Source: Bilabrum cf. latius (taxonomy: Eukaryota). Taken from it: 64,000 bases of DNA. Made by a program: the position numbers and the translations under genes. Each line of letters begins with the position of its first letter. Position 1 is the first letter of the stretch. The notes beneath the pieces are model-generated. The model saw only the letters and a list, made by a program, of their open reading frames with translations, was not told the DNA's origin and made no database searches. The DNA lies in NCBI GenBank assembly GCA_965178125.1, contig OZ237768.1:372001-436000 (forward strand). Reading direction: 5' to 3'. Positions 188 through 63,880 of the stretch are shown here, piece by piece.

Positions 188-2328
188 CGAATGTGGACAA
201 GTCGGGTACGCAGACGACTACGTGGCACTGACGTCGAACTGGAACGAAGCAGTGGCGGTCATGAAGCTAGTCAAGAGCCTGTTTGCACTTGCGGGCATGT
301 AGCTGGGAATCAAGCCCCTGACAGCATCGGGCCAGGGAACCAAGACAGCGATCATGGCCTTTGGCTACGCTCGGGACTCAATTCCTGGGGACATGCCAGA
401 GGGCGTCGCATGCAGAGCAGCGGACGCGGGAGAGACGGATGGGGAGTGGACCATCCCACTTGCCTCATCCTACCTGTACCTCGGTCTACTCATTTCGACC
501 CAACCAGTACGGATCAGCCCAGATGAAGTAGCTGGGCTGACGCAGGCGAGAGACATCTGGGTAATTGATATGGCACCCCACGTACGCAGGAGGATTGCGA
601 TGGCGTACCGGGCGGCCAGGGACATCACACGAGCGGCGGTGAACGGCAACTGGGCGGTCTCCCTGCACGCCCAGCTGCTCCATGCAGGAGCAATCACGAG
701 TGCATTCTACGGAGCAGAGGCAGCGGCATGTGCAACAGGATGGGACACCTTGTCAGGATTAGGATATGGTTCCCAAGTTTTCTACGGGATGGAACTGAAC
801 CTGGAAGTCCTCAAGATGCTGGACAAATTCCTGCTGGATACGCGCTGGATGATTGTCAGCGGATCGACACAGGTAAGGCCCTTCACCATGGGCGGTCGAT
901 ACGTGCCAAACCTTGCGATGGACACTGAGCTGCTGACGGCATCGGCAGCAGGGCGTGTTGCTATGGGCCTGCTGGACCTGATCGAGTGTCCCTCGAAGAA
1001 GGGCCTTGATGTTGCGGCCAGGTTCATCCACCAGGGCCGATTCCTGCAGGGACCACCAGTACAGACAGGCCCACTCGGGGCCGCGCTGGCACTGGGATTC
1101 AGGATCAAGATGGCAGGGTGGACCCACCGGATCGATGACGCGAAGGACTGGCTGGGATGCCAGGAGACTGCAAAAAAAGTCACAAAGTGGAGGAAATCCA
1201 AATCCGGAGCTGCTGACCGATCGTTCACAAGCCTGAGCCTGGGATGCTCGCACGATCCGGCACTGTCGGATTGGGACCGGGAGAGAGCTGCGCTCGGAGT
1301 GGTCATGCTTAACCGGTACGCAACGAAGGGACGGTATGCCTTCGGACCAGGAGCCATGCCAACAGCAGCGGTGGTGCAGGAATACGGCCACCAAGGAAGA
1401 CGAATTCTGCGCATCCGAGCTGGACAATACCCGCAACAGGGCACGCCCAACCTTCAAGTGATGGGCACCGCGGTAGAGCAGATGGAGCGGGCCGAGCATG
1501 ACCATCATGCCGGAACGAGACCGTGGCAACCCGATGATGCGGATCAGAATAGAGGGAGGTCCCCTGCCTCCCTCCGGAAAGCATGGGCGAAGACAGCTCT
1601 CGCTCAGGACCCTTGGGACGAGAAGCTGGAGCGCACCAGCAGGGCCAAGCCAATCGTCGAAGACGCACTCACTCGGATAGAGCGTACGATTGCGCGGTCA
1701 TCGGAACGGACAGCTGTCAAGGAGCTGGCCAACCGAGTGGTGCAGGTGATCAGGAACCAGCTGCGCTAGCAGGAGTAGCTGACGTGCAGGCAGTGGATGC
1801 GAGGCGATGCGGCGGCTGCTCTTGCCGCCACGGCCACGCAAGAGCTGATAGCGGCAACCAATGCGAACGCTCGGCTACAGCGACGGATGTTTAAGCCCCA
1901 CGGCTTGCTAAGGGACATAGAGAGGCAATGGGCCAAAGGCATGAGCGCGTGCATGCTAGCCTCTCTGAAGGATCGTGAGACGCAGAGACGGTCATGGAGG
2001 AGGAAATGGTGGGTCCCGGCAGGGGACCCTGATGTGGGACTGGACCGCGCTTTGTGCCGGGCACATGCTCCGCACCTGTATGCTTTCTCCCTGTGAAGGC
2101 ATCAGGCTGAGGGCTTGTGGGGGACCACACTGATGGCGAATAAAGGGGACTCGGCGGTGTAGGCTGAGATTGGGGGGCCTTTGGCCTGAAAGGGTCGGGG
2201 GTCTTGTAGTCCTTGTTTGAGGACTCCTCTGGATTCAGGTGATCACTCGAACTCCTTCGGGGGCAACGGTGCATCTGGGTGCTTGTGGAATCTTTACCCA
2301 ACAATGTATTTCTGTATTTCTGTATTTA
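188..2328 (+). mobile_element. 5'-truncated non-LTR retrotransposon copy 1 (RT from the YADD motif onward, long C-terminal region, 3' UTR and TATTTCTG-type tail)
   Basis: Colinear with copy 3 (about 4118-6268), starting just before GYADD. The frame is open to TGA 2094-2096 apart from TAG at 300, 1767 and 1776, which align with CAG, CAG and CAA in copy 3. It ends in AATGTATTTCTGTATTTCTGTATTT. Confidence 0.85.
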
Positions 2329-3280
2329 TCTTGTTATCCTGGTGGGGGAGATGGACCCTTTATGGGCCCTAGCCTTAGCACATAGTGCTTTGGCTATATT
2401 CTCCCTTACTATGGGATGGGAGAAGCCGACGCCTGGATTGGTATTGTCGGCTGCACCGGGTTCGGTGCCTGTGCTGGTTGAGCAGCACAGCCCTGTTCAG
2501 GCGTCCTGGAGTGTCGTCTGCGCAGCGGAAGAAGAGCAAAATAGCTCTCGATTCCACTCGAGATCCCTGCGGGGGCTGCGAAGTGGTTATGGCCCGTTAG
2601 CCGATGTGCGCGGGAAGGTCTACGACCAAACGGTCGGGAAGGTGTTTACCGCCTCCGATGCCCTTACTGTCATTTCAGCACGGGATTTCTCCCCTTGTGA
2701 AGAAAATGGGTTCTTTGAAGCCCTAGTCTTAGCATCTAATGCTTTGGCGCCGATCTACGTGCCGGAGAGCAGGGCGATTGGTTTCTGCACCGTTGGTGCC
2801 ACCTATATCAACCGGGCCCGGGGACACCGAGCTCAGGAAGACTCCCAGGAGGGGGAGCCTCGGAACTATTCACGTATTTACGCTGACAGTTCCAGAGACG
2901 AGCATGATTGTGTGCATGCTCGACCCTCAGAGGGATCGCGAGTCCGGACGATCCTGGAAGTGACGTCGGAGGCTGGAGGGGCACTCCGTGGTGGGTCTGG
3001 ACCGCGCATTATGCCGGGTCCACGCAGTATGCCTGTGTGTCTACGGATATCCGAAATAAAGGCTCCGGGACTGCTGCGAAGGAGGGCTTGAAGGCGACAA
3101 AGGGAGGTCCCAACATCAGGGCCGGTACATGGGGGGCCTTTGGTCTGAAAGGGTCGGGGGTCTTGTAGTCCTCTTATGAGGGCTCCTACCGCTGCAGGTG
3201 ATCACCTGAGATATGGTGCATCTGTGGCGGGTTCGGTAACTTAACCCAACAATGTATTTCTGTATTTATTTTCTGTATTT
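2329..3280 (+). mobile_element. Degenerate 3' fragment of an older, diverged copy of the same retroelement family
   Basis: About 2903-3060 translates SMIVCMLDPQRDRESGRSWK*RRRLEGHSVVGLDRALCRVHA, versus GMSACMLASLKDRETQRRSWRRKWWVPAGDPDVGLDRALCRAHA in copies 1 and 3. It shares the 3' UTR core (3130-3280) and the tail. Confidence 0.7.
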
Positions 3281-6268
3281 CACGGGTTGCGCCACACATG
3301 CCCAGGGCAACGGCACCACTCAACCTGTACTGCAGGTCGAATGCAGAGGTGGACCAAGCACTGGACAGGATCAAGCACAACAAAGCTGTGGGACCGGACG
3401 GGATCAGGGCTGAACTGCTGATCAAATGCAAGCCCAGCTCCGAGGAGGACGGGCACATGCGGCGAAGTGATGCGCTGCTGGACCTACTCAGAGCCATCTA
3501 TAATCTCACTCTCTTCTCGGAAATACAGCCCGAGGCCTTCCAAGAGGGGTTCATGAGGCCGGTCTCCAAGCGCAAGCAAGGCACAGGAGTCCCAGGAGTC
3601 GACGAATTCAGGCCAATATGCTGGACAACGGCGCTTTCGAAAGTAGTGAGTACTATCGCAAACCAGAAGGTCGTGTGGTACTACGAAAAGCACGGACTCT
3701 TTGGACAGGACCAGGCTGGATTTCGCATCGGAAAAAACTGTCAGCAGGCCTACTCAGCGGTGTTTGAATGGATCACTCAACGAGGAGGGGCTGGAGGCTT
3801 CCTGGTGTTCTTTGATATCAAGGGAGCCTTCGACAGCTGCAAGTGGAACGTCATTGAGGCCATCATGACGGAACAAGGATGGGGACGCCAGACGATACGA
3901 TTCCTGATGGCCCGCATGCAGGTGGCCATCCGCGTCCGAGACCCACACACCAGAAAGGTCTCTACCAGAGTGCAGAAGACGGCGGGCACCCCACAAGGGG
4001 GTATCCTGTCCCTCACTGTCTTCCTGGTATTGATGGGGGCCCTATTGGAGACGCTACGGAAAGAGAGGCTCCAACACGGACACCAACAAAGGATCATTAC
4101 CGCCACTGGACGATATGTGGAATGCGGACAAGTCGGGTATGCGGACGACTACGTGGCACTGACATCGCAATGGAACGAGGCAGTGATGGTCATGAAACTA
4201 GTCCAGAGCCTGTTCGCACTCGCCGGCATGCAGCTGGGAATCAAACCTCTGACTGCACAGGGCCAGGAGACCAAGACAGCGATGATGGCCTTTGGCTACG
4301 CCCGAGACTCAATCCCTGGGGACATGCCAGACGGCGTCGCATGCAGAGCAGCGGATGCGGGAGATGCTGAAGGCGAGTGGACCATCCCACTTGCCTCATC
4401 TTACCTCTACCTCGGGCTACTCATCTCAACTCAATCGGTGCGAATCAGCCCAGATGAGACAGTCGGGCTCCTGCAGGCTAGAGACATCTGGGTGATCGAC
4501 ATGGTACCACACGTGCGCAGGAGGCTTGCTATGGCGTACCGGACGGCTAGAGACATCACACGAGCGGCGGTTAACGGAAACTGGGCAGTCTCCCTGCACG
4601 CTCAGCTGCTGCACGCAGGAACGATCACGAGTGCATTCTACGGAGCAGAGGCAGCGGCATGCGCAACATGATGGGACTGCTTGTCAGGAGTAGGACAAGG
4701 TACTGGCATCTTCTACGGGATGAAGCTAAAACTAGAAGTCCTCAGGATGCTGGACAAATTCCTGCTGGACATGCGCTGGATGATTGCCAGCGGATCGACG
4801 CAGGTAAGGCCATTCTCCATGGGAGGCCGATATGTGCCAAGCCTTGCGATGAACACCGAGCTGCTCACTGCAACAGCAGCGGGACGAGTTGCAGTGAGCC
4901 TGCTAGATCTGACCGAGTGCCCCCTGAAAAAGGGCCTTGACGTAGCAGCCAGGTACATGTACCAGGGCCGACACCTGCAGGGACCACCGCTACAGACGGG
5001 CCCCCTCGGGGCCGCCCTGGCACTGGGATACAGGATCAAGATGCCTGGGCGGATTCTACATTCTGACGACGCGAAGGACTGGCTGGGATATCAAGAGACT
5101 GCGAAAAGAGTCACGAAATGGAGGCGATCCACGTCCGGAGCTGCGGAACGGGCATTCACAAGCCTTAGCCTGGGATGCTCGCACGATCCAGCACTGTCAG
5201 ACCAAGACCGGGAGCGCGCCGCGTGCGGAGTGGTGTTGTTTAACCGATTTGCAACGAAAGGACGGAATGCTTTCGGACCAGGAGCCATGGTGAATACAGC
5301 GGCAATGCAGGAGTACGGTCATCAAGGAAGACGAATCCTGCGCATCCGAGCTGGACAATACCCACAACAGGGAACGCCCAACCTCCAGGTATCGGGCACC
5401 GCGGTAGAGCAGATGGAGCGGGCTGAGCATGAGCGTCACGCCGAAACGAAGCCGTGGCAACCTGATGCCGGGGATCAGAATAGAGGGAGGTCGCCCGCCT
5501 CTCTTCGGAAGGCATGGGCGAAGACAGCTCTCGCCCTGGATCCCTGGGACGAGAAGCTGGAGCACACCAACAGGGCCAAGCCAATCGTCGAAGGCGCGCT
5601 CATTCGGATAGAGCGCACGATTGCACGGTCCTCGGAACGTACAGCTGTCAAGGTGCTGGCCAACCAAGTGGTGCAGGTGCTCAGAAACCAGCTGCGCCAG
5701 CAGGAGCAACTGACATGCAGGCAGTGGATGCGTGGTGATGCGGCGGCTGCCTTAGCCGCCACGGCCACGCAGGAGCTGATAGCGGCAACCAATGCGAACG
5801 CCCGACTACAGCGACGGATTTTCAAGCCCCACGGCTTGCTAAAGGATATAGAGAGGCAATGGGCCAAAGGCATGAGCGCGTGCATGCTCGCCTCTCTGAA
5901 GGATCGTGAGACGCAGAGACGGTCATGGAGGAGGAAATGGTGGGTCTCGACCGGGGACCCCGATGTGGGACTGGACCGCGCCTTGTGCCGGGCACACGCT
6001 CCGCACCTGTATGCTTTCTCCTTGTGAAGGCAACAGGCTGGGGGCCTGTGGGGGACCACACTGATGGCGAAGAATGGGAACTCGGCGGCATAGGCTGAGA
6101 ACGGGGGGCCTTTGGCCTGAAAGGGTCGGGGGTCTTGTAGATCTAGTCCTTTGTTTTTAGGGCTCCTCTGGATCTAGGTGATCACCCAAACCCCCTCGGG
6201 GGCGACGGTGCATCTAGGTGTTTATGGAATCTTTACCCAACAATGTATTTCTGTATTTCTATATTTTC
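3281..6268 (+). mobile_element. 5'-truncated non-LTR retrotransposon copy 3; RT ORF 3298-6027 with one true nonsense codon
   Basis: Non-LTR RT motifs KAVGPDG, FRPI, QAGFR, FFDIKGAFD, GTPQGGILS and GYADD. TGA at 4669-4671 aligns with GGA (Gly) in copy 1, so this copy is disabled. Same 3' UTR and tail as the other copies. Confidence 0.9.
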
Positions 6269-7556: not shown

Positions 7557-7890
7557 GTCAGTACATTTCCTTCAGTTGCTTCGTCTGCGCGCGAGTGGCC
7601 GGCCCGTCGTCGCCGCTGCTCAAAGCTTCCATTGGGGGGAATGTGCTTGCCACGCATCCCTCTCGGCAGCTTCCATGCACACAACTCTCTTGCGTTCCCA
7701 GTCCTGCCGGCCCACGGATTTGCATGGCACTTCAACCACACTGTTAGTGTCCGAGAGCCAGTACACAGGCTCTCCCCGAAGAATCTGCTCGAGTAGCATC
7801 ATGGAGTACTTGGTGGGCGCCGCCAGGCCCGGCCTATTGGTAAGCACCCCAACTGGCGGCGCCTTGATCAGTCCTGCTTCGCCCCTGCGC
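7557..7890. repeat. Dispersed direct repeat of about 335 bp, second copy at about 17555-17890; fragment of an unidentified degenerate element
   Basis: Near-identical sequence at both loci. The adjacent 7457-7535 also resembles 15971-16040. Confidence 0.8.
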
Positions 7891-8095: not shown

Positions 8096-9775
8096 ATGCG
8101 CCTTATCGTTCCTATTTTGGTAGCCCTCATTGCCTGCTCGGCGGTCAGTGTGCACGGGCGACGAGCAGCAGGCCAGCAGCACCTTCGCAGCGCTGGCTCC
8201 ACGTCGTCGGCCTCGGTCCGCGCCAGAAGCAGGCACCAGAGCCGCGGCAGCTTTGTAATAGACCTCAAGTATGACAAAGTTGATGCATTCTCCTGTGACG
8301 TCAGCGCCTTGGCCGCCAGGAGGAAGCCGAGATTGCGCGATAGTCTCCAGAAAGGCGAGATTCTGCATTCCGACATTGCCCCGCTCGGTAACACCTTGTC
8401 AAGGAGTCGGACAAAGGTACGGCTCCGTGCTGATTGCAAACTGGTCGTCCAAGTTAAGGATAATGATGAATCGTTCGTCTCTGGCAACGACGAAAAGCAT
8501 GCCGACCACTGCGCTCTTCTCTTGACGGATGCATCCTGCAGCACGCAGGGAGACCTGGCCATCATCGACACGGACACGGGCAAATACCTCTGGCGGATAC
8601 AATCCTCTATCTTCACACCCGAGGTGGACACGTTTATGGCCCAGGCGGACGGCAATGCCGTTCTCCTCCAGGAAGGCGCACAGCTGCTGTGGAGCACAAT
8701 GAACGGGCCTTACGGGCAGGGAAGTTCCACTTAGGGAGTGGGGAAGTTCCACTTCGATCTGGAGGTGCGGGAGGACGTGCACAGTCTGAAGTGCGATACT
8801 GGAGCCCTGCAATCGTCGTACCACCATGTGATTAATGGCGACGTACTGTCTCCGGGTCAGGTGCTGCAAGCCGGGGCCGCCTTGAGGGCGGGCGAGGGCT
8901 CTGAGCTGCGCATGCAGGGAGACTGCAACCTGGTGGTGCACATAGGGGGCAAGGCGCGGTTTGCGACCAACACGAGGGGCAAGGGTACCGAGGGGAAGTG
9001 CGCACTCGTCATCACGGGGAACGGGTGCGACACCAAGGGCGATCTGGCCATCGTGGACAGCGCCTCCGGGCAGTATATCTGGCGGGTGCCTACCTCGCTG
9101 ATGGACCCGGGTGCAGACACCCTTCGTCTGCAGGGGGATGGGAATGCTGTCCTGTTCCAGTAGGGAGGTGCGATCGCGTGGTCTGCGGGGTCGGAAGACT
9201 TGGACAGTCCTGACGACGACTACACCTTCGGCAATGGTCGCAAGACGATGGCGCTGCAGGCGGCCATCAATGGGTGGGCTCCTCGCTGCGACCTCAAGGC
9301 GCTTGCTGAGCGACCTGCCGCCCGGGGGCACTCTCTGTGGGACGATGAGGTGCTGGCCATGGGGAAGTCGATCCAGAAGGGCGGCGACAACGAGGCCTCT
9401 CTGACGGTGCAGGACGACTGCAACTTGGTGGAGACGACCGAGATGGGAGACGTTGTCTGGAAGTCGGACACCCATGGCAAGGCCTCGAAGTGCGCACTTG
9501 TCATCACAGGGGAGGAGTGCGACCGCACGGGAGATCTTGCCCTTGTGGACATGGACAGCGGGGCGTACCTGTGGAGCATCGACACGTCCTATATGTGGCC
9601 CACGGCCAGGGTGCTAATGGTTGAGGGAGATACCATGATGTTGCGCCAGCAGGCTACGTTTTCAAGTATCTGGCGGTCGAATGGCGTGGGACTCTTCAGC
9701 TCTGCGCCCCCTGAGGGAAACCCGGAACCCATGTTCGAGAGTGCGTTTGCTTATTTGGACAAGGCTCAAACATAA
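8096..9775 (+). CDS. Secreted protein with three bulb-type (B/GNA-like) lectin domains, copy 1
   Basis: Signal-like N-terminus MRLIVPILVALIACSAVSVHG; QxDxNxV motifs (MQGDCNLVV, LQGDGNAVL, VQDDCNLV). One frame through TAG 8732 and TAG 9161 (CAG in paralogs), ending TAA followed by TGA. Confidence 0.85.
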
Positions 9776-13369: not shown

Positions 13370-15046
13370 ATGCGATCAATGCTTTCTATTCTGGTAGTTC
13401 TCGTCGCCTGCCAGGCACTCAGTGTGCACGGGCGACGAGCAAAAGGCCAGCAGCACCTTCGCAGCGCTGGCTCCACGTCGTCGGCCTCGGTCCGCGCCAA
13501 CAGCAGGCACCAGAGCCGCGGCAGCGATACGCTACAGCACAACTATGACAATGTTGATACATTGTCCTGCGATGTGAGCGCCTTGGCCGCGAGGAAGCCG
13601 GCAAAGGGCGACAGGCTCCGGAGAGGCGAGATTCTGCATTCCGCCATCGGCCAGCACGATAACGCCTTATCCAAGGGTTCGACAATGTTGTAGGTCCGGG
13701 CTGACTGCAAACTGGCCGTTAATGGCAAGGACTAGCCGGAATTGTTCGTATCGGACAACCGTGAGGAGCACGCCGACCACTGCGCGCTACTCATGACGGA
13801 TGCAACGTGCAGCACGCAGGGAGACCTGGCCATCATCGACACGGACACGGGCAAGTACCTTTGGCGGGTGCAATCCTCTGTCTTCACACCCGAGGTGGAC
13901 ACGTTTCAGGTTCAGGGAGACGGCAATGCCGTTCTCCTTCAGGAAGGCGCGCAGCTGCTGTGGAGCAGCAATACCGGAGACCACACGCGCGGGTGGGGGA
14001 TGTTCCACTTCGATCTGGAGGTGCGGGAGGACGTGCACAGTCTGAAGTGCAAAAAACGGGCTCTGAAATCGTTGTACTACCAAGTGACTGGCGGCGACGT
14101 GCTGTCTCCGAAGCAGGTGCTGCAAGCCGGGGCCGCCTTGAGGGCGGACGATGGGAAGGTCGAGCTGCGCATGCAGGGAGACTGCAACCTGGTGGTGCAC
14201 ATAGGGGGCAAGGCGCGCTTTGCGACCAACACGAGGGGCAAGGGCACCGAGGGGAAGTGCGCACTCGTCATCACGGGGAACGGGTGCGACACCAAGGGCG
14301 ACCTGGCCATCGTGGACAGCGCCTCCGGGCAGTACATCTGGCGGGTGCCTGCCTCGCTGATGGACCCGGGTGCAGACACCCTTCGTCTGCAGGGGGACGG
14401 GAATGCTGTCCTGTTCCAGCAGGGAGGTGCGATTGCGTGGTCTGCGGGATCGAGGTTCTTGGATAGTCCAGATGCCGACTACACCTTCGGCAATGGTCGC
14501 AAGACGGTGGCGCTGCAGGCAGCCATCGACGCGGCTCCTCGCTGCAACCCCAAGGCGCTTGCTAAGCGACCTGCCGCCCAGGAGGACTCTCTGTGGGACG
14601 ATGAGGTGCTGGCCATGGGGAAGTCGATCCGGCCTTGGGTTTACAGCCAGGCCTCTCTGACGGTGCAGGACGACTGCAACCTGGTGGAGACGAATAGGAG
14701 AGGACACATCCATTGGAAGACGGATACCCGGGGCAAGGCCCAGAAGTGCGCACTCGTCATCACGGGGTAGGAGTGCAACCACACGGGAGATCTTGCCCTC
14801 GTGGACATGGACAGCGGGGCGTACCTGTGGAGCATCGACGCGTCCTACGTGTGGCCCACGGCCAGGGTGCTGAAGGTACTGGACAGCACCGTGTAGCTGC
14901 GGCAGGAGGCTACGTTTTCAAGTATCTGGCGGTCGGTTACCGACGAGGGATTCTTCGGCAGCTCTATAACGCCGCCTGAGGGTAACCCGGAACCCGGTTT
15001 CGAGAAGGTCTTCAATTATCTGGCTGGGCGAGTCCCAAGACACTGA
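13370..15046 (+). CDS. Secreted triple bulb-type lectin, copy 4
   Basis: Single frame with TAG at 13691, 13733, 14768 and 14894. A 4-nt CTGG duplication near 15020 changes only the last few residues. Ends TGA. Confidence 0.8.
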
Positions 15047-16215: not shown

Positions 16216-17217
16216 ATGCAGTCGCATCAGCAGTACGGCAATGGTGCTGCCGCTCAACGAACTGACCAAATCCCTGTTGGCGTCCCGATAGGCTAGACCC
16301 CAGGTGGCAACCCAGGCCTAACCACGGCAAATGGAGAGAGAAGAACTGATTTTCGCGTTGGATTGTGCGACTGCTTCGGCGAGTGCAGCATCTGCCTTGC
16401 TTCAACTTTTATCTGCTTCTGGCCGTGTGTGATTGGGCAGATTGGAAACCGGACGAGGCGCTGGCCCTTGGGAGCAACAAACATGCAAGGAGCAATGTAT
16501 AGAATTGCCCCAATTGTGCTGGTTGCTGTGATCGTGCAGTTGCTGGTACAAACTGGAGTCGCGGCTGAAAACCCGACTCTCGGGGCGATTCTTAACTTTG
16601 TCAACTTCATCGCCGGCATCGTGCTCGCAATTATCGTGTACTCGGTCCGGACTTAGACAAGGTAGGTGCTCGGATATACTCCGCAGGGCTGCTGCGACTG
16701 CCTCGCGTCCTGCTGCTGCCAGTGCTGTAGCGTGGCGCAGGTGGCGCAGGAAGTGAACGTCAAGGAGCCCTTCAGCACCAAGGACGTGGAGATCGTGGAC
16801 GTCTTCGGAAATCCTATTCCCAGGGACGGGTCTTCAGGCAACGGAGGCGCGGGTGGGGTGCCTATGCAGGCCAATCACCCACCACAAGGAGGCATCCAGA
16901 TGCAGCAGTTCCACCCGCAGCACCAACCCCAGCACCAGCCCCAGCCCCAGGGGCAGGGAGGCTTCCACAAGACGCAAGTGCCCCAAGGGCAGGCACAGGG
17001 AGGCGTGTATCCCCCTCCCCAGCATGGGGCCGTGGCTCCGACCCCTCCAGGGATGGGGGGATACCCCCAGAGCGGGGGCTATGCCGGCAACCCATACGGG
17101 GGTCATCAAGGGGCCGGCGGTGGTGTTGCCCAGCCCTATCCGCAGGCTGGGTTCACTGCTCAGCAGCCCCAGGCCCAGCCGGACCCCATCGCGGCCAAGA
17201 TGGCTTAGAACGTGTGA
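16216..17217 (+). CDS. PLAC8 (DUF614, Cys-rich) family membrane protein with Q/P/G-rich tail
   Basis: FRVGLCDCFGECSIC...FWPC and DCLASCCCQCCSVAQVAQEV motifs lie in one frame only if TAG at 16294, 16654, 16663 and 17206 is read through. Ends TGA. Confidence 0.85.
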
Positions 17218-22600: not shown

Positions 22601-23111
22601 CTTGCCTAAGGCTGGAGGGGTCGAGCGAGGCGGCCCCGGCGGGGAGGTACACGTACGTCTGCTGCTCGGGCAGCACGGAGGGCATGCCCCGGGCTGTGGA
22701 AGCGGAACCATTGCGCAGCGCCTCCTGCTATGCGGAGCCGCGGGGTGGGCGGCGCTCTGCCGATCTCGCGCGGCGCCGCCTTGCGGAACCGGAACCCTGC
22801 CTGCCCCGGTCGGAGCTGCCTGCGCTGGAACCACCGATCGCAGCTCCTGCTCTTGGGGACGCCCACTAAGGCCTACTCCTGCGACTCGTGGCGCTGAATG
22901 CTTCCGAATTGGGATCACGCTGCTTCTGCTCCCGCTTTTTCTCGATAGCCTGGCGGCGCTCTAATGCTTCTCGCCGTTTGCGATCGCTCGCAGCCGTCTA
23001 ACGGGTAAAGCTGCTCGTCATCTTGAGAATAGCATGGGCTGTGGGGGCTTCTGTTGGCGATTCGGGACGAGAAGTGGACACTCCCGACAGACCGCGAGGA
23101 TGCTGTGCCAT
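19689..23111 (-). CDS. Hypothetical low-complexity / coiled-coil protein, 1140 aa
   Basis: ORF-track pieces 22998-23189, 20325-22685 and 19779-20108 are one frame, separated only by TAG (22998, 22866, 22728, 20325, 20124, 19779). ATG at 23111, TGA at 19689. Confidence 0.75.
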
Positions 23112-52571: not shown

Positions 52572-54251
52572 ATGCGATCAATTGTTTCTTTGTTGGTAGC
52601 TCTCGCCGCCTGTTCGGCGGTCAGTGTGAACGGGCGACGAGCAACAGGCCAGCAGCACCTTCGCAGCACTGGCTCTACGTCGTCGGCCTCGGTCCGTGCC
52701 AGCAGCAGGCACTTGAGTGACGGGGTCTATCGATTTTATCCGGAATATGACAAACTTGACAGTTTGTATTGCGACGCGAGCGCCTTGGCAGCGAGAAAAA
52801 AGCCGGCAGAGGGCGACAGGCTCAGGAGAGGCGAGATTATGCATTCCGCAGGTGGCCCGCTGGATGACATCTTGACCAAGGATTCCATAACGGTGCGGGT
52901 TCTTTCTGACTGCAACCTGGTCGTCCAAGGCGAGAATTTGGCCAAAGAGGGGTATCTGTTCGTCTCGGACTTCCCCGGTCGGAAGGGCCCCTGCGCTCTT
53001 CTCTTGACGGATGCATCGTGCAGCACGCAGGGAGACCTGGCCATCATCAACACGGACACGGGCAAGTACCTCTGGCGGGTGCAATCCTCTGTCTTCACAC
53101 CCGAGGTAGACACGTTTCTGGTCCAGGGGGACGGCAATGCCGTTCTCCTTCAGGAAGGCGCGCATTTGCTGTGGAGCACAAAGGCTGAGGGGTCGGCGTT
53201 CAAGTTGGGGTTCCTCCACTTCGATCTGTAGGTACGGGAGGACGTGCACAGTCTGCAGTGCGATGCAGGGGCCATGCAATCGTCGTACCACCAAGTGACC
53301 GATGGCGACGTGCTGTCTCCGAAGCAGGTGCTGCGAGCCGGGGCCGCCCTGAAGGCGGGGAAGGGTGTCGAGCTGCGCATGCAGGGAGACTGCAACTTGG
53401 TGGTGTACCGAGGGGGCAAGGCGCGCTTTGCGACCAACACGAGGGGCAAGGGTACCGAGGGGAAGTGCGCACTCGTCATCACGGGGGACGGCTGCGACAC
53501 CCAGGGCGACCTGGCCATCGTGGACAGCGCCTCCGGGCAGTACATCTGGCGGGTGCCTGCCTCGCTGATGGACCCGGGTGCAGACACCCTTCGTCTGCAG
53601 GGAGACGGGAATGCCGTCCTGTTCCAGCGGGGGGGTGCAATCGCGTGGTCTGCGGGGTCGGCGGACCTGGATAGTCCTCACGACGACGAGACCTTTGGCA
53701 ACGGTCTCAAGACGGCGGCGCTGCAGGCAGCCATCGAAGGGGCGTCGCCGCCTCGATGCGACCCCCAGGCGCTTGCTAAGCGACCTGCCGCCAGCAGGAA
53801 CTAGCTGTGGGACTCCGAGGTGCTGGCCATGGGGAAGTCACTGCAAATGACCACACGCTATGACAATGCCTCCCTGACGGTGCAGGACGACTGCAACCTG
53901 GTGGAGACGGATAGGAGAGGTCGCATCAACTGGGATGCGGGTACCCAGGGTAAGGCCCAGAAATGCGCACTCGTCATCACGGAGGAGGATTGCGACCGAG
54001 TGGGAGATCTTGCTCTGGTGGACATGGACAGCGGGGCGTACCTGTGGAGCATCGACACGTCCTACATGCGACCCACGGCCAGGGTGCTGAAGGTCAATGA
54101 CAACACCCTGTCGCTGCGCCAGCATGCTACGCTCATGTGTATCTGGCAGTCGAATGCCGGTGACGGCTCCCCGCCCCCTGAACCAGAGGGACATCCTGAA
54201 CCCAAGTTCGAGAAGGCGTTCACATATTGGGGCAAGTCCCAGGATGCATGA
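52572..54251 (+). CDS. Secreted triple bulb-type lectin, copy 8
   Basis: Single frame with TAG at 53229 and 53802; ends TGA. Confidence 0.85.
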
Positions 54252-54891: not shown

Positions 54892-56532
54892 ATGTGCGCA
54901 CAAGTCGGAGATATAGCGTCCGATCCAGGCTCTTCAACAATTAAACTACCAGTGACTGTTCTGTCGGGCATGCTGGGTGCCGGGAAGTCGACTCTACTGA
55001 AGCACATCCTGACCAACTAGGAGGGTATGAAGATTGCCGTCATCGTAAACGATATGAGCGAACTGAACATCGATAGCGAGGAGCTGAAGAAAGCTGGCAT
55101 CATCCGTAAAATTGAAGCAGAGATGGTCGAGATGCAGAATGGCTGCATCTGCTGCACGCTGCGAGACGACCTTCTCAAAGAAGTGTCTCGGCTAGCCGCA
55201 TCGAAGCAGTTTGACTACCTCGTGATCGAGTCCACGGGGATCTCCGAGCCAATTCCCGTGGCACAGACCTTTACCTTCACAGCCCCCGGCTTTGCGGGCC
55301 TGCCTGCCATCGCTAGGCTCGACACGATGGTCACCGTCGTGGATGCTGCCTCGATCTGGAGCGACTTTCAGAGCGGCGAATCACTCCTCGACCGCAAGCA
55401 GCAGGCCGGACCCGGCGACGAGCGCGAGATCAGCGACCTCATCTTGGACCAGCTCGAGCTAGCCGACGTCGTGCTAGTCAACAAGTGTGACGTGGTGAAG
55501 GAGAGCGAGGCAAGACAGGTCGAGACGTTCATCCGCAAGATCAACCCCAAGGCCAGGGTGCATCGCACTGTGCGATCCAACCTCCCGCTCAAAGAGGTCT
55601 TAGACACGGGCCTGTTCAACATGGAAGAGGCCCAAAAGCACCAGGGCTGGATCGAGGAGCTGCAGAACCCGCACCACACACCGGAGACCGAGGAGTACGG
55701 AATCTCTTCCTTCGTGTTCAGGACGCAGCGGCCCTTCCACAGCGAGAGGCTCCTGCGACTGCTGGCCCACTGGGTGAATAAAATCGCCACTCCCGTCCCT
55801 GGGGAGGAAGAGGAAGGTCTAGAGGGAGCCGGCGGGGAACAGGCTGCCGGTGCGGGCGCCGACGCGGGATCCGGGTCTGGCTCGGGTTCTGCTGCCATGG
55901 AGGACGGCGATGAAGATGAAGATGAAGATGAGAAAGGGGAAGTGAAGTAGGTGGAGGCCAAGGAGGAGGACGAGGAAGAAGGGGAGGACGAGGACGGCAT
56001 TGACATGCGTGACAGGCCAGAGGCACCTCCGGGCGGCCTGGCTGAGTCCATGGGATGCGTGCTCCGAAGCAAGGGCTTCGTGTGGATGGACACTCTCAAA
56101 GACTTCAACGTGTTCTGGTCGCAGTCCGGCAAGCTGCTGCAGGTAAGGGTGGGCGGGCCATGGTGGGCGTGCCTCCCTGACGAGAAGTGGCCCAAGGACG
56201 AGGACAGGCGCAAGGAGCTGAAGGAGGGCTGGGACAGGCGGTGGGGAGACAGGCGAACCGAGCTCGTCATGATCGGGAAGGACATGGACAAGGCCAAGGT
56301 TGCGGAGGCGCTGGAGTGGTGCCTCTGCACGGAGGAGGAGATGAAAGGGGGCTTCAGGGCACTGACGTCACACGAAGACACGCTGCTGGCAGGTGTGAAC
56401 AGGGAGGCGCTTGCCATGCAGATCGCCATGTGGCCGGCGGACGGTGATGAAGGAGAAGAAGAGGAGGAGGAGGAGGAGGAGGCTGGGGGAGGCGGTGCGA
56501 GCGCCCCAATGGAGTCCGGGGACGATGCTTGA
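54892..56532 (+). CDS. CobW/COG0523 (G3E) zinc-metallochaperone GTPase with acidic insert
   Basis: LPVTVLSGMLGAGKST (Walker A), TN[TAG]EGMKIAVIVNDMSELNID, GCICCT, IESTG, NKCD, ETEEYGISSFVFR, LRSKGFVW, WGDRRTELVMIG. TAG at 55018 and 55948; ends TGA. Confidence 0.93.
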
Positions 56533-56993: not shown

Positions 56994-59900
56994 CCGGCGC
57001 CGTGAAAGGTCCGCCATTATTGGCATTCCGAGTCCCAAAATCGCGACCATCGTGCCTTTAGGCTCCCATTGCTCAGAACTGGACCAATTTCTTGGGTAAA
57101 TTTACATTGCAAAAATATCTAATGTAACATTTAAATGTAATGCTGTCCCAACGAAGCCATGCAATTCGCAGCATTAGACTGAAAACGAGTCGTGCTTGCG
57201 ACCACCATTTTTGGCGACCACCCCGAGCCCAAGATTTTACTCGCTGGCGAGGGGTGCCAGATGCACGCACCGTGTGCCGCCAAAAAAGCTTTTCTTTGGT
57301 TTCTATTGGTACTTAGTAGGTAAACACGTACTTTACAACATGTTATCAGGTCGCCAGGCTCATTCATTTGCAATCCAGCGAAATTTGGCTGCCATTCCAA
57401 CACACGTCGGTTCAAACGGTTCCAAAATTTGCAGGGCATTTATACCTTAGCGCAATAGACTTTTAACACACTGGCACTACTGTTGAGATACAAGGGTATT
57501 GAATGCAATATCATGTGGAGGATTCCGTCTAAGTTTGCGAGAAGAACGAGTGGGACGCGATAAAGTGGCTCCAGCGGCGCGTCCGAAGTTGGGTCTCGGG
57601 GTGCAAGTGCCCCTGGTGGGAGTGCCTCGTCTCGGCGTCACGAGCAGAAATCCGCCAAACTCAGGCTCATCGATCAAAGTGAGTACGGTATTATTTTGGT
57701 TGATGGAATTGCATGGGCTGTAGCCGGCTATTATCGGGGTACCGTACAATCTGCCGCAGAGGCACCGGAAGCCACGAATGTGGCACTCATTGACAGTATC
57801 CATGCATCCGTGGTATGCTTGACGAGGTGTTGGTTGAATAATCATTCCATGGTGATGTGGACGAGCTTAAATAATTATACAGAGGTATAATAGGGCCACA
57901 ATCGGGCTTGCGTCCTGTGCAGAATTGGCCATGCACGGTGTTGCTGCAAGGCCACTGATATCAGCCTTCATCGCTTATTTGTGCTTAGCCTTCGCAGAAG
58001 CATCTCAGTCAATCCCAAAATTCTCATTGGAGTCTTGTAAACCTATATCTAGCGTTTCGGTTGCTAGCAAGTAGTCAAGAAGCAGCCCGTCCCATGCGGC
58101 CAGTTCGAGCCGACGCGCCGGGTCCAAGCGTAAACGGCAAGAGGACAATGCAAATAAATCGACAAAAGATTATGATTTACGTGATTTGTTGGGCGAAGCA
58201 TAGGCCAGCGATGATGATATGGACTATGTCGGCGATTCAGACGAGGACGAGCCGGTATCCAGTCGGTCTGCAACTTTGAGCCGGCCTCCGGTGCAGCATC
58301 GTAGGAGGCAGTAGGCTCACCAAGCAAAGCGGCGCAGAATAGAGCAATATGAAAGTATGTTTCCTATGGACAAAATTGCATCGTTGGTTGATGAGCCTGA
58401 ATATAGGTACTTCTTGAATGACCGGGTTGTGATTGGCGGTGATGGGATCCCGATCGCTCGCACAGCGGCTACTCATGTGGCTGCTACTGAGTATGTCAAT
58501 GGCTGGATGACGGCTCATCATGAACAACCAATATCTCCAATACGCATTCTGTGCTCGCTGGTGCCTCTCGATATTGCATTTTCGTGGCGAGGCACTGCAG
58601 CGGCAGAGGTAGCTGGCCAGGCAGCCGGCCAGCCGGCAGCGACCAACCAATGGACATGCCAGTTGCCATGATGTTCCTGGCCGTGGCATTGACTCGGTCT
58701 CTCATTCGACCCCGGATACCTTTAGAATTGCTGCAATCAAAGTAGTTCCTGGTGCGCATGAAAGACGATATCGTAGTGCAAGACTGGAATCGGTTCCATC
58801 GAAACTTGTCTTTCGCCGGGAGGTTGCAGGAGGCTCCGGCACCCCTGCTGGCGGAGGAGCGCGCCACAATGAGGCTAGGGAGTGTGGGCAGTCCTCGCGA
58901 GCGGGTTCTCATAGAATATCCACCAGGCATGCTAGATGCAGTTTCAGAGTACTTTCGTGCGGCTACTTTGAGCCCAAAGAGCATCGCCGTCGATGAGATG
59001 ATGGTGATGGCGTACGGCCGAAATCGGGCATGTGTCATCATGCCGAACAAGCCCACATCGCATGGCTTTAAGCTATGGGCAGCTGCACGAAAAGACGGGT
59101 ATGTGTACCATTTGGATCTAGCAACATCTGTTGCCGATGATACACGATAGTACAGAGGGAAGGCTGAGTACTCGTATAAGGTAGCAACCGGCAGCGGTGC
59201 CGCTGCCGGGTAGCTGACCCGGATGGACCTGCAAACAGCAGCTGTTGCGTCGAAGGCAATGGGCAAAAACTTGAACGGGGGCCTCCTAGCGGTGGATAAC
59301 TACTTTACATCGGCTCCACTGTGTGATTGGGCCACCAGCAAAGGCCTTCGGGTTGTTGGCACGCTTCGCCAAGGCAAAGTGAGCGGTGAGCTGTACCACG
59401 CGATTGGCTAGCTGAACAGACGAACCCCAGGCGAACGCGGGCAGGCTGTGAAGCGCGCTCTTCTTGGGTCCAGCAAAGTATCTTTATGTAATGTAACAGC
59501 TGGTGATGTTTTTGATGCGAGTGAGCTTCCTGCGGGATCGCTGCTGGCCGAAGAGGACCTTGGCAGTCGGGGCCTGTTGAGCCCTGGCCAGACAGTAGCC
59601 TTTGACTCGCCAGATGATTCAGCTTATGGGATGCAAGTTTTTGGATACTGTGACCGCGCACCATTTCTTATGGCTTCTAACATTCCTACGAAGTACTTTG
59701 TTTGCTTGGTAAAGACGCTACGGAGAGATGGTGGCGACCTGAGTGTGGTGAACGCGCCCCTCGTGTCCGTCCTCTACAACAAGTACATGGGGGGTGTGGA
59801 TCTAGCTGACAAGTTCCGGACGCAACTTTCGCTAACAAATTCATTCCAGAGAGAGACTAGGGCATACTTAAGAGTGTGGGAAGGTTTAATGGAGCAAGTT

Positions 59901-60889
59901 ATCGTCAATACGTACATCATCTGGGTCAACTTGGAGGCACGTCGACTGCTACGCCACGGACCCACTCGTCGGCTAGCTGCTGGAGCTAGCAGCAAATCCG
60001 TTCAGGAACAGGTTTAGCACATGGTGCGGCATCAACAGGCTCGTGGTATGTTTGTGCAGCTGTTGTATGACGAATTGATGCGTCCTTACCGACATGCACG
60101 TGCAGGAACTCGCGGTGCTGCAACCTCAGCTGGGATGCGTGCGGAGGCGACCCCCGGGAACCTTGGATGTAGAAAGCAGCACGTGGTAGCTACGCTGCTG
60201 GGCTCGCTCCATTTGATTGGAAAGGAGTAGTTACAAGCAGGACTGATTAAATTTCTCAGTAGCGGACGATCAAAGAGCCGTCGAGTGGGGTGCAGCGCCA
60301 AGTGCAAGGGCTCCAGATGCAGCAAGCGGCAGCATCATTAGTCGGTTTCTTCCTATAAAGTGTGTTCACGCTGCTGCAAGTTCATTTGTGGGGATTGTAA
60401 AGAATCTCTGTATCATCTGGAAACAGGATTTGGCTGTGATGTAGATTAAGTTGATATAAATGCCAAGTAGATGGATGCACAAGAATCGGGTCACGAAGCA
60501 CGTAATTCATGGTAGGTCCACATTCGATTCAATATCTTGTAAACCGTTCGGTAACTTTTTTGCGCTAAGACTTATATATAATATAACCACCAATAAATTC
60601 AAAAAAGCTTGTTTATTTTGCAAGCATGCCTGCTTGGACAAACTTCTGCAGTATCAAAGTAGCCCTTCCTGAAAATCGAGCGTTTGGTTTCATGACCACC
60701 AAGTATACTATTGTCGCAAGTTTATCAATGAGTAACACTCGCAGTCGATAGTTAACTTATACAATTTTCAATATCTTGATATTATTTTAGGATTACTTGA
60801 ATGGTACGCGAGAATCGGTAAGGTGAATTGAAGGTACCGATATCGGCGATACCGGTCGGTCGGCCAAATCCGACCTTTCACGGCGCCGG
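56994..60889 (+). mobile_element. Full-length piggyBac-like DNA transposon (3896 bp)
   Basis: Perfect 18-bp TIR CCGGCGCCGTGAAAGGTC (56994-57011, inverted at 60872-60889), flanked by direct CTAC (56990-56993 and 60890-60893), enclosing a transposase. Confidence 0.9.
57931..60449 (+). CDS. piggyBac-family (DDE_Tnp_1_7-like) transposase with acidic N-terminus and C-terminal Cys-rich domain; one frame change (intron or frameshift) near 58610-58670
   Basis: AVDEMMV..GR...MPNKPTSHGFKLW, VDNYFTS, VGTLR, YNKYMGGVDLAD, CSRCCKFICGDC. TAG at 58072, 58201, 58312, 58743, 59148, 59211, 59409, 60015, 60228 and 60339. First TAA at 60447. Confidence 0.85.
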
Positions 60890-61166: not shown

Positions 61167-63880
61167 TCAGTACCCGGTGAGCGGCTCCTTGGCCATCGCG
61201 ATCATCTCGTCCGCAGAGGGAATGGGACCGGTCTTGGTGCCCAGGTCGGCGTTGTACTTGCTCTGGTAGTCAGCCACGCTCATCCCGCACTCGGTGACGT
61301 CACCGTTCGCGGCGAATACCCTGTTGTCGCCGAGGATGTTGGCAGATGAAGACGGGGCGCAGGTCCCGTGCCAGTAGTTGCCGGTGCCGCTGAGTACGAT
61401 GGTCATGTTGGTGAAGTGGTCCACGCAGCACGGGTCGGCCTTAACTGCGGTCATACCTTCGCCCACGTAGGCGGCGAAGGAGCTGGAGTGCTGCGGATCG
61501 AAATGATGGAGTGCGAGGGTGAGTGGGCACGATACGAGAGCCATAGAAGAGCAGCCAGGTGTGATGTGAGAGATATTCAGCTATATGAAGGCAAACAAAC
61601 CATCAATGATTTGTCAGCATAACTGCATTGCAAGCTTCTCACGCTGTTCAGCGATCCTGAGAAGTCGTTCTTGAGCTGGTAATGGCCCAGGTACTGCGAG
61701 TTGTTGTTGCCGAGGAACCGGCGGCTGCCGTCATCGTTGTCGAGGAGTGCGTCCTGCGATATGCGCGGTAGCGATATGCGGACGGGATATTCGTGGGCAG
61801 GGGGAGGTGGTCAAACACAACGCGCCTGCCTAGACTAATGACGCATCGGGCTTCAAAATGGAGGCACCGTTCGAGTTCGTCAGCATGTGGAACATGCTTC
61901 TTGGGAGATTGAACATAATAAGCAGAAGTCGTCGGGTGTGAGACAATAGCAATCGATGAAAGTGCTGGTACGCGGTGCCTCACCGAGTTGTAGTTGGAGA
62001 TGCCGATGTTGCCCCGGATGATGGTGTTGGGCCGGAGCGTGGTGGGCTGCCCGTTCTCGTCGGGAAACTCGTACACCTGCCTGTCCCAGCTGTTAAATAC
62101 TGCGAAGACCATGCAGCAAATTGGGTGGTACACACGACGAACGATTGTAACCATGGCTTGGTTGGGGTCCATAGTGTGCTCATGGTAGGCCTGTTCGGCA
62201 TCCACCACGCAACGATGCTGGTGTAGCGAGACGAGATAGCTGTGCAGCTCTGCTAAAGAAAGCCTCCTATTGACTCTGATCGCAACAAAGCTCATTTCTC
62301 TGTTGCATCACACTCACGCGCGTGGTCGCCGCTCTCCCTGCATGAGTTCCACAGCACATTGGACTCGATGAGGTCGCCGCCCACACCGCCATCCTGCGAG
62401 AGCAAAGGTAGGTCAAGGGAACACACGTACAAAGGATTTAAGTACTGCATGCAGGCAATGAAAACATGCCGTGCGAGGTGGAGGCAACGTGAAGTCAGCA
62501 TATCTTGCTGTGGCATTGCCGCCAGCTCACGTTCTAATTAATGTGCGCGCGAGGACCGTTGTAGACAATGTTGCGGGTGTACTTGTTGTGTCCAGCCTTG
62601 GCATAGAAAATGGCGCTGCTCTGCTTCTCGTGCACCCCGAATTCCTTGAAGAGGCACTGGTCGATCGTGGTGTTCATGGGAATGTCCAGAGACATGAGGC
62701 TGGGGCCGAAGCCCGGAGCGCCCGCTGGCGCGCCCTCGCCGTTGCCCCACAGTGCGATGCACGTATCGCCGTTCCACTCGAACTGCGACTTGGTGATGGA
62801 GGCGTCCCTGTTGTACGCAGAGAGCAGCAGGGCATTGCCGTCGAGGCGGGTGAACATGCACGAGTCGATGGTAAGGCCCTCGGTACCCTCTACCTGCACC
62901 GCTGCAGTGCGCTGCAGTCCCCAGTCTCCGCCGGATGGCATGCTATGGGGGTCCATGTACGTGTAGGCGGTGTCCCGGAAAGTGACCCCGCGGAAGGTGA
63001 CGTCCCTGACGGGGTAGTTCTTGGAGCCAGCGATGTCAATGAGCACTTTGTTGGTGGGCGCAGCGAGGCTGGGCAGCTCGCCTTCTGCCTGCCCCTTGGA
63101 AGAAGGCGGCGCCCCCGTCCCGTTGTGCCAGAGGTATAGCGCGCGCTCGTCGGTGTCATAGAAGAACTCATCGGGGTAGTCCAGCTCCTCGAACACGTTC
63201 TCGATGAAAAATACGTCCCCCGTGTTGGCACCTCTGCAAGGGAGGGGTCGGAAGGAGAACGGGGCAAGCGACGGAGGGTACGGGCACGGCAATCTGGCAA
63301 GGGACAGAGGGTACGAGAAGGCGATCTGGCAAGGAACCCATGTCCAAACCTAGGCATAATCAGCAAGGCAGCACAGTATTCGGACGCAACTCCTTCATCC
63401 AATGGGAAATTTAGACGAGCATCAGTCACGTCTGCAAGGCCTCAGACAGAAGCACCCTGCCAGGCATACCAGCAATCTCACCGAGCACCCTGGAAGAACC
63501 CGTAGTCCACCCAAAATGTGTTGTTGTCAGGGTCGTAGCGGCTCAGCTCGCCCATCCAAGAGGACCAGTGGCCGGGCCTGCGAGGGAGGAAACCAATCAT
63601 AGAGGCAAGACCACGGGCGATGCAAACACGGGCAGACCCGGTGTTTGTAGGCGTGATCGCCAGGGAGCAGCAGTTGGGGCACTCTGACAGAGAGGACGGG
63701 TGAAAAGCAAATGTCCGTCTCCCACGGAGCTATGCAGATACACATGTTCCCTCTTCTTCTCTTACCTCCAGGTCTGGATGATCCCACCCTTGGTCGTCTT
63801 GTACGGCTGGTGGGGCAGGATGCTCGTGTCTGCCTGGAAACCCGCTGGCACCCGGTAGGTGAATGCACCGCCGCCGCTGC
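61167..63880 (-). CDS. Multi-exon right-handed beta-helix (pectin-lyase fold) carbohydrate-active-enzyme-like protein; 5' part probably outside the window
   Basis: Exon pieces RPGHWSSW, FFQGARG, FFIENVFEELDYPDEFFYD, PSGGDWGLQR, GVHEKQSS, NGPRAHIN[TAG]N, CRESGDH, FNSWDRQ, DNDDGS, bounded by GTGAG donors and GCAG acceptors. Ends TGA 61167. Confidence 0.7.

Follow-up and report, generated by a model that had tools for sequence, protein, structure and literature searches.

Evidence that UAG is read as sense, and UAA and UGA as stops, in a GC-rich window of eukaryotic nuclear DNA

Gene content of the window

Here, we examine the meaning of the codon UAG in a 64-kb stretch of contig OZ237768.1 (positions 372,001 to 436,000 of the forward strand; GenBank assembly GCA_965178125.1, labelled Bilabrum cf. 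latius), hereafter the window, for which an initial annotation had proposed a non-standard nuclear code. The window ranges from 53 to 69% GC (about 58% overall), includes a 200-N gap at 37967-38166 and is eukaryotic nuclear DNA. It holds a gene for ribosomal protein eL30, short GT..AG introns seen in transcript contigs, a reverse transcriptase (RT) in two copies resembling that of long interspersed nuclear elements (LINEs), a piggyBac-type transposase and seven B-lectin paralogs in tandem or inverted arrangement, together with single genes bearing PLAC8, PH, ECH_1 (AUH), MIB/HERC2 and CobW domains. Pfam domains were sought in translations of open reading frames (ORFs) in which TAG was written as X. 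The features, with their in-frame TAG codons, are listed below.

177..2096, + strand: RT1, a 5'-truncated LINE-like reverse transcriptase, aligned to copy 2; TAG 300, 1767, 1776; stop TGA
3202..6027, + strand: RT copy 2, RVT_1 found; no TAG; in-frame TGA at 4669-4671
8096..9775, + strand: B-lectin L1 (tblastn, codon alignment, Pfam B_lectin); TAG 8732, 9161; stop TAA
10420..12105, + strand: B-lectin L2 (tblastn, codon alignment); TAG 11830, 11956, 12088; stop TGA
13370..15046, + strand: B-lectin L3 (tblastn, codon alignment); TAG 13691, 13733, 14768, 14894; stop TGA
16216..17217, + strand: PLAC8-domain gene (Pfam PLAC8, 44.2 bits); TAG 16294, 16654, 16663, 17206; stop TGA
19689..23111, - strand: low-complexity gene of 1140 codons, no Pfam family; TAG 22998, 22866, 22728, 20325, 20124, 19779; stop TGA
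23516..27424, + strand: PH-domain gene (Pfam PH, spliced X5 contig), intron 23723-23893; TAG 23717, 26468, 26918; stop TGA
27907..28348, - strand: ribosomal protein eL30, intron 28113-28247; no TAG; stop TAA at the conserved C-terminus
28722..29654, + strand: methylglutaconyl-CoA hydratase, AUH/ECH_1 (Pfam ECH_1, 195.5 bits), introns 28723-28810 and 28878-28974; TAG 29382; stop TGA
32740..33925, + strand: MIB/HERC2-domain gene (Pfam MIB_HERC2, 52.5 bits), introns 32642-32739 and 32805-32897; TAG 32933, 33545
34305..37502, - strand: last exon (1065 codons) of a gene without detectable relatives (spliced X5 contig); 14 TAG, at 37326, 37140, 36939, 36915, 36675, 36564, 36390, 36276, 35862, 35088, 34884, 34713, 34551, 34539; stop TGA
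40123..41805, - strand: B-lectin L4 (tblastn, codon alignment); TAG 40159; stop TGA
46390..48045, - strand: B-lectin L5 (tblastn, codon alignment); no TAG; stop TGA
49562..51253, - strand: B-lectin L6 (tblastn, codon alignment); TAG 50861, 49931, 49613, 49583; stop TGA
52572..54251, + strand: B-lectin L7 (tblastn, codon alignment); TAG 53229, 53802; stop TGA
54892..56532, + strand: CobW/ZigA-type G3E GTPase (Pfam cobW, 177.7 bits; CobW_C, 65.9 bits); TAG 55018, 55948; stop TGA
58524..60449, + strand: piggyBac-type transposase ORF (Pfam DDE_Tnp_1_7, 46.1 bits); TAG 58743, 59148, 59211, 59409, 60015, 60228, 60339; stop TAA
62495..63232, - strand: beta-helix repeat ORF (Pfam Beta_helix, 22.7 bits, under the curated cut-off of 25.9); TAG 62534; stop TGA

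In-frame stop codons in validated frames

We counted stop codons in frames fixed by Pfam or PDB homology, by paralogy or by spliced transcript contigs, which together make up 21 segments and 11,243 codons (RT copy 2 was entered as two separate segments, either side of its in-frame TGA). These codons include 58 TAG and neither TGA nor TAA, whereas the remaining two frames contain 136 TAG, 400 TGA and 90 TAA, giving an in-frame to off-frame density ratio of 0.85 for TAG and of 0 for both TGA and TAA. At least one TAG is present in 17 of the 21 segments. The pattern is seen within one long exon as well: the ORF at 34308-37502 has 49 TGA and 12 TAA off frame and none of either in frame. Based on the codon make-up, and with single-base changes in which transitions are weighted twofold, random nonsense mutation is predicted to produce TAG, TGA and TAA in shares of 0.40-0.60, 0.21-0.34 and 0.11-0.28, respectively. 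Even at a TAG share of 0.6, drawing TAG 58 times out of 58 would have a probability of about 1e-13 by our arithmetic.

Reading through TAG raised the number of stop-to-stop ORFs of at least 500 amino acids from 6 to 14. Reading through TGA raised it from 6 to 18, and reading through TAA left it at 6. Because TGA read-through also lengthens ORFs, such lengthening is not specific in GC-rich DNA, and the case made here is therefore built on homology-anchored frames.

All 14 TAG positions named in the initial annotation are in-frame TAG codons of the gene to which they had been attributed, and our counts agree with the earlier ones for RT (3), the lectins (16; 2+3+4+1+0+4+2 from L1 to L7), PLAC8 (4), the gene at 19689-23111 (6), PH (3, with 23717 in exon 1 and two more in exon 2), AUH (1), MIB/HERC2 (2), the ORF at 34308-37502 (14), CobW (2) and the beta-helix ORF (1). 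Of the ten TAG codons counted earlier for piggyBac, seven lie in the main ORF, and the other three would come from an upstream ORF in a different frame. That ORF, at 57871-58668 on the + strand, carries three TAGs and may join the piggyBac ORF by an intron or a frameshift. The earlier statement that these genes lack internal TAA and TGA holds for the 21 validated segments and fails for RT copy 2, given its TGA at 4669-4671. We could not sustain the label "MACPF-like" for the ORF at 34308-37502, which has no Pfam match and, when 8000 candidates of 585-1864 residues were scored, no homolog at E <= 0.001; because homologs are lacking, its 14 TAG columns are uninformative on the residue.

Conservation across UAG in single-copy and repeated genes

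Single-copy conserved genes carry TAG within otherwise intact domains. In the CobW gene, TAG 55018 fills a single column that separates the Walker A motif from the remainder of the GTPase, as had been described, and the alignment with YjiA and 120 homologs is unbroken across it; the 230 residues that follow average 56% identity to 119 homologs. The second CobW TAG (55948) falls within an acidic insert. Likewise, TAG 29382 takes up one alignment column of an AUH gene that is intact, as the initial annotation had it, with PDB alignments reaching the chain ends. The 89 residues after this TAG are 63% identical to 120 homologs, compared with 67% among the homologs themselves. Among named organisms, oomycetes and chytrids come closest in AUH (65-70% identity), intermixed with Acidobacteria among the 120 best matches, which include no green alga. 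In the spliced translation of the PH gene, TAG 23717 sits in the W-x-K-R motif of the Pfam PH domain, again as had been noted.

The repeated genes allow TAG to be compared with its counterparts in paralogs. RT1 and RT copy 2 align over 639 codons with 86% nucleotide identity and a ratio of non-synonymous to synonymous differences per site (pN/pS) of 0.23, and TAGs 300, 1767 and 1776 of RT1 face CAG, CAG and CAA in copy 2. The seven full-length lectins are all collinear, each giving one unbroken tblastn match to the TAG-free L5. Divergence between copies is 10-18% at non-synonymous sites and 14-30% at synonymous ones, no indel breaks the frame, and TAG is present in six of the seven copies. The initial annotation had argued that random decay would also yield TGA, TAA and frameshifts, and we found zero TGA and zero TAA in the 21 segments and, across the seven lectins, no frameshift. 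Two TAG columns are common to L2 and L3 (11830 and 11956 in L2, 14768 and 14894 in L3) and have therefore been inherited through later divergence. In L4, the sequence behind TAG 40159 agrees with the tails of the paralogs as far as the aligned stop, in line with the earlier description of this copy. More generally, L2, L4 and L6 have a TAG 4 to 12 codons ahead of the stop, and the paralog tail runs on to the aligned stop in each.

These lectin genes (about 555 codons, with a signal peptide and three lectin domains) form two clusters, at 7868-15046 and 40123-54251, with a partial eighth copy at 12167-12697. All copies are nearly the same in their central lectin domain, suggestive of gene conversion or of strong constraint. 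A stretch upstream of L1 (7517-7992) is duplicated beside the PLAC8 gene (17275-18094), the two being 88-98% identical as translation. The MIB/HERC2 gene also has an inverted paralog, at 29983-31018 on the - strand against 32825-33925 on the + strand, with exons 67-77% identical as protein, a long identical stretch and a similarity that reaches into an apparent intron; this paralog has GAG opposite TAG 32933 and CAG opposite TAG 33545.

Outside the window, close relatives of the lectins in a library of 1.84 billion proteins consist only of fragments of 58-185 residues (P0241, P0242, P0244 and P0256), compared with about 550 encoded by the gene, and two of these fragments start with M where the paralogs carry V. 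Such a pattern would be expected if gene calling under the standard code had cut TAG-bearing genes of this lineage, and we treat it as a hint only. It bears on the earlier prediction that standard-code annotation would fragment most genes here. We likewise expect such annotation to leave most genes of this genome truncated or in pieces; 17 of the 21 validated segments contain TAG. A search of the ESM Atlas with L5 returned only weak B_lectin leads (0.86-0.87) that say nothing on lineage, and a metagenome scan with L5 gave 94 pattern matches and no relatives.

A related metagenome contig with in-frame UAG

The best eukaryote-like match to the window's CobW protein (P0001, 48% identity over 442 aligned residues) was used as query for a metagenome scan. 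The scan recovered a contig of 5307 nt and 57.8% GC (L001) with an intronless CobW gene of 593 codons, 62% identical to the window CobW over the GTPase domain. This gene ends on TGA and has an in-frame TAG at 2148, in a conserved C-terminal extension, after which 15 of the next 20 residues match P0001. The TAG is located elsewhere in CobW than those of the window. Judging from the sequence of this contig, UAG as a sense codon seems to be common to at least one further organism. Two more long ORFs on L001, at 2497-4032 (+) and 4199-5305 (-), match no Pfam family. In one of them, which stops on TAA, three in-frame TAGs lie close to the start; the other stops on TGA and has no TAG.

UAG in transcript contigs

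We compared the window over 17950-37900 with contigs from four runs belonging to four studies and four organism labels. The long contig pieces listed have no letter differing from the window, no difference is reported at any TAG, and the 20 differences listed all fall between 30569 and 32283. At least 26 joints were found in all, 15 of which are listed. Eight of these 15 have GT..AG ends on the + strand or CT..AC on the - strand, match the strand of the ORF and skip 88-171 bases; they are present in X5 only (three in X8 too) and in neither the DNA run X1 nor X6. The other seven listed joints have non-canonical ends, sides of 20-27 letters and lie mostly at repeats. Because of its spliced joints and its very uneven depth, which varies from 0.3 to 1921 and is highest on eL30, we took X5 as RNA.

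The spliced X5 contigs retain the TAG codons. One contig, joining 23516-23722 to 23894-25964, includes TAG 23717 of the PH gene; another has both AUH introns spliced and keeps TAG 29382 with zero differences. A third, of 3792 nt, spans 34208-37502 unchanged with 14 of 14 TAGs, crosses two CT..AC introns (37503-37619 and 37680-37794) and stops some 100 nt downstream of the TGA at the end of the read-through ORF. The eL30 CT..AC joint is found in both X5 and X8, the MIB/HERC2 introns are likewise taken from contig joints, and X5 contigs also cover the low-complexity gene at 19376-21718 and 22187-23140 with zero differences. At the level of contigs, then, the TAGs are retained in mature mRNA, being neither spliced out nor edited.

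The gene at 34305-37795 (-) is well transcribed, with a contig depth of 126 in X5. Within the low-complexity gene, 21280-21945 reaches a depth of 3122 in X1 compared with about 20-50 in adjoining bins, marking a GAGTGA-type coding repeat that is either simple or present in very many copies. Pieces of several kilobases without a single difference occur in runs from four studies under four organism codes, and about 5% of the sampled words are also found in two more runs, labelled protist and algae metagenomes. Other cultures may commonly carry the organism, as an associate or a contaminant.

Termination and the status of UAG

The codons that still end genes were examined at conserved C-termini. 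In AUH the stop is TGA, and human AUH and four other solved chains end one residue away from it; in eL30 it is TAA, with solved eL30 chains ending 1-5 residues away. The lectin ends, aligned across all seven copies, are TGA in six and TAA in one (L1). TAA also ends the piggyBac ORF, and TGA is the main stop. None of the nine homology-anchored ends (seven lectins, AUH and eL30, a small sample) is a TAG, and two TAGs close to stops are ambiguous.

Because of the stop statistics, the collinear paralogs, the conservation after TAG, the presence of TAG in spliced contigs, the TGA and TAA codons at conserved ends and the CobW gene of L001, we conclude with high confidence that UAG is a sense codon and that UAA and UGA are stops, at the level of DNA and transcript contigs. 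Several observations weigh against this conclusion. RT copy 2 has a TGA (4669-4671) opposite GGA of RT1, the sole in-frame TGA in a validated frame, and lectin dN/dS (the ratio of non-synonymous to synonymous divergence) of 0.43-0.77 indicates moderate constraint, so that some copies may be decaying. TAG 17206 of PLAC8 lies three codons ahead of a TGA, and the TAGs of repeat ORFs near 31720 and 48270 lie just ahead of a stop; all of these may be real terminators, which would give UAG a dual meaning. X5 is labelled 'RNA? (probably DNA)' and none of the runs listed is on record as RNA; moreover, Logan contigs drop rare variants, so rare edited forms would not show. Finally, ARAGORN and Rfam found no tRNA or other Rfam family in the 64-kb window, and no eRF1 is encoded among the window ORFs scanned.

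On this reading, nuclear UAG is translated as an amino acid, with termination at UGA in most genes and at UAA, a code of the table 15 type if the residue is glutamine. By analogy with systems described previously (PMC5304391, PMC11687900), a cognate tRNA with anticodon CUA would read UAG and not UAA. This tRNA may have been derived from a polar-residue tRNA by one anticodon change, and eRF1 would, again by analogy, have weakened recognition of G at the third position and hence of UAG.

Amino acid assigned to UAG

The residue is polar, hydrophobic and aromatic residues being disfavoured. Precedent, which is mostly glutamine for reassignments of UAG or of UAR (UAA and UAG), weighed together with the present data, places glutamine first with somewhat better than an even chance. 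Glutamate is unlikely by comparison and still deserves serious weight, lysine comes a little behind it, and any other residue is improbable. The initial annotation had found glutamine best supported and glutamate not excluded. This wording is fair, and the support is weaker than it reads, as glutamine, glutamate and lysine are inseparable in our tests.

Paralog alignments are one source of information. TAG lies opposite CAG or CAA at 300, 1767, 1776, 9161, 49931 and 33545, as previously reported. Of the GAG partners reported earlier, those at 11830, 32933 and 53229 were recovered, and 8732 proved mixed (GAG twice, CAG once and three others). Other lectin TAGs face a conserved TCG (50861) or TGG/CGG (13691), and the remaining ones occupy variable columns, with K commonest at 40159 and 12088. 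Of the 11 TAG columns whose partner is clearly conserved, ten have Q or E as that partner, against a neutral expectation of about 44% computed from the lectin codon counts (rough p of about 0.003), and the residue is therefore Q-like or E-like, not W, Y, L or S. The six Q against four E partners do not favour Q because CAG to TAG is a transition, the measured dN/dS being used in this comparison. The argument made earlier from the sugar-binding glutamine at 49931 stands insofar as TAG is opposite CAG there, and is weakened by the second-domain motif of L6, which has K for Q.

Ortholog columns are a second source. At CobW 55018, the 120 homologs have R in 112, T, E and K in two each, Q in one and a gap in one, with Q in E. 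coli YjiA. The AUH 29382 column comprises E 37, A 36, D 11, T 7, K 7, Q 4, P 4, G 3, I 3, V 3, M 2, H 1, S 1 and R 1. The TAG column of L001 itself has K in P0001 and S in the window CobW.

We also summed scores over ten TAG columns in a Codetta-like profile test, using hidden Markov models built from fetched homologs. Q obtained 4.6 bits, D 2.8, K -0.5 and E -1.3, with a weak control, and Y (-15.2), L (-19.6) and W (-20.9) were disfavoured. A single column, the L6 QxDxN glutamine, supplies 3.8 of the 4.6 bits for Q. In control trials with ten-column samples, Lys was recovered 18% of the time and Arg 2%, and we rejected the test as evidence for glutamine since its control lacks power. Pfam rescoring was similarly flat: with TAG read in ten ways for PLAC8 and piggyBac and in four for MIB/HERC2, Q, E and K differed by 1 bit or less. 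PLAC8 scored K 48.3, E 47.7 and Q 47.4, with L lowest at 42.3 and Y also low; piggyBac scored Q 47.4 and E 47.1, with Y lowest; and K was best for the MIB/HERC2 segments (53.4 and 16.5).

Some of these data weigh against glutamine. TAG is opposite GAG or GAA in four columns (53229, 11830 with 14768, 49613, and 32933), the minority codons of 16 E-majority lectin columns include four TAG and no CAG, L001, whose CobW is the nearest ortholog, carries K in the column of TAG 55018, and the control sums over all columns for true AAG and CGG codons also decode as Q in the profile test.

Glutamate, UAA and UGA remaining stops, would explain the first two of these observations and agrees with E as the commonest residue of the AUH column (37 of 120). 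In addition, the lectin fragment P0242 ends where the paralogs have E, its following codon not being seen, and a rough conditional likelihood computed from the Q and E partners with the measured dN/dS is even or slightly toward E. These points have to be set against the six TAGs that face CAG or CAA, half of which belong to the RT pair with its pN/pS of 0.23, and against the CobW column, where E would reverse the charge of the R in 112 of 120 homologs and of the K in L001. The position of TAG 23717 in the PH motif, which we take to be usually basic in the PH consensus, argues in the same direction, as does the profile sum (E -1.3 against Q 4.6 bits, subject to the weak control), and the Pfam scores for E and Q are flat.

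The case for lysine draws on CobW, in which L001 has K at the window's TAG column and P0001 has K at that of L001, on the best Pfam scores for PLAC8 and both MIB/HERC2 segments, and on the K-dominated columns of lectin TAGs 40159 and 12088. No TAG occurs in the 15 K-majority lectin columns, however, and AAG is the partner in none of the RT and MIB columns; the profile sum is also below that of Q (-0.5 against 4.6 bits, with the same weak control). The portions of the literature available to us describe no nuclear UAG read as Lys, only UAA as Lys in one ciliate.

Alternative readings of the UAG codons

UAG could have a dual meaning, sense within genes and termination close to some 3' ends, as other codons do in Condylostoma, Parduczia and Blastocrithidia. 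The PLAC8 TAG three codons ahead of its TGA (17206) would fit such a code, as would two copies of a repeated element with a common TAG seven codons ahead of the stop, and only about ten C-termini are homology-anchored. We nevertheless consider it improbable, given that TAG is found at none of the anchored C-termini of the seven lectins, AUH and eL30, and that the tails of L2, L4 and L6 continue past TAGs 4 to 12 codons before the stop. The repeated element is transcribed and lies at 31475-31750 (+) and 48219-48617 (-); it is high-copy, as the DNA-run depth is 1095 at 31270-31935, compared with about 20-120 nearby. Its TAG may be a sense codon or the element's own terminator.

Least credible is the standard code, with the TAGs as nonsense in decaying pseudogenes or dead transposons or as artefacts of assembly, editing or splicing: much of the window is indeed multi-copy (lectins, RT, piggyBac), the RT pair alone (three TAG and one TGA) fits neutral decay after insertion and the lectin dN/dS leaves room for it, but decay, editing, splicing and assembly error are all very unlikely in view of 58 TAG with no TGA or TAA where 40-60% TAG is expected, the absence of frameshifts in lectins this diverged, TAG in the single-copy CobW, AUH and PH genes, family-level conservation after TAG, TAGs unchanged in four runs of four studies and in spliced contigs, and a TAG at another site in the CobW gene of L001.

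Comparison with known nuclear codes

Nuclear codes in which UAG and UAA differ in meaning have been described in a handful of lineages, and the present case bears on how eRF1 drops one stop codon and yet keeps its near twin, and on why both usually change together. It would add a GC-rich, intron-bearing, non-ciliate organism with TGA as the main stop, and L001 suggests that the change is common to a clade. UAG read as Glu or Lys with UAA and UGA as stops, common to a little-sampled GC-rich lineage that would include the L001 organism, is a possibility we hold as tentative and rather doubtful; in the literature as accessed, we found no description of a nuclear code of this kind. Nor did that literature describe a GC-rich non-ciliate UAG-only code beyond those of Iotanema, rhizarian exLh and Scotinosphaera.

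Codes of the table 6 type, in which UAR is read as Gln, have been reported in ulvophyte algae, Hexamita, Streblomastix and Amoeboaphelidium. They resemble the present case in changing a stop to a polar residue in a non-ciliate eukaryote. Amoeboaphelidium was rejected as the source of the window on GC content, its genomes having about 40% GC (PMC10608142) against about 58% in the window. We rejected the table 6 type here because TAA is absent in frame against 90 occurrences off frame, ends eL30, L1 and the piggyBac ORF, and adds no ORF of at least 500 amino acids when read through. UAG and UAA also differ in meaning in Oligohymenophorea sp. PL0344, where UAG is Glu and UAA is Lys (PMC10553269); in contrast to that ciliate, UAA is a stop here, with no in-frame TAA in 11,243 codons and a TAA at the end of eL30.

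Decoupling of UAG from UAA is likewise seen in the uncultured rhizarian exLh and in metagenome-assembled genomes of TARA ciliates, in which UAG is read as Leu (PMC5304391, PMC11687900). Leucine is strongly disfavoured for the window by its profile sum of -19.6 bits over ten columns and its PLAC8 score of 42.3, compared with 47-48 for Q, E and K. The green alga Scotinosphaera reads TAG as Ser and keeps TAA and TGA as stops (PMC8271138), and thus shares with the window the reassignment of one stop in a non-ciliate. Serine fits the window poorly as well, conserved S being present in one of 14 lectin TAG columns (50861) and in none of eight CobW, AUH, PH, RT and MIB columns, with Pfam scores for S below those for Q, E and K.

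The closest parallel is offered by Iotanema spirale, Protocruzia tuzeti and the phyllopharyngean ciliates Hartmannula sinica and Trochilia petrani, in which UAG alone is read as Gln (PMC5304391, PMC11687900). Unlike that group, the window has 53-69% GC, short GT..AG introns, TGA rather than TAA as its main stop, glutamine as no more than the likeliest residue and nothing that points to ciliates or fornicates. As in those organisms, UAG is sense, UAA and UGA are stops, and UAG is scattered along gene bodies and, in the small sample of nine anchored ends, unseen at conserved C-termini; if the residue is glutamine, the code described here is of their UAG-only, table 15 type.

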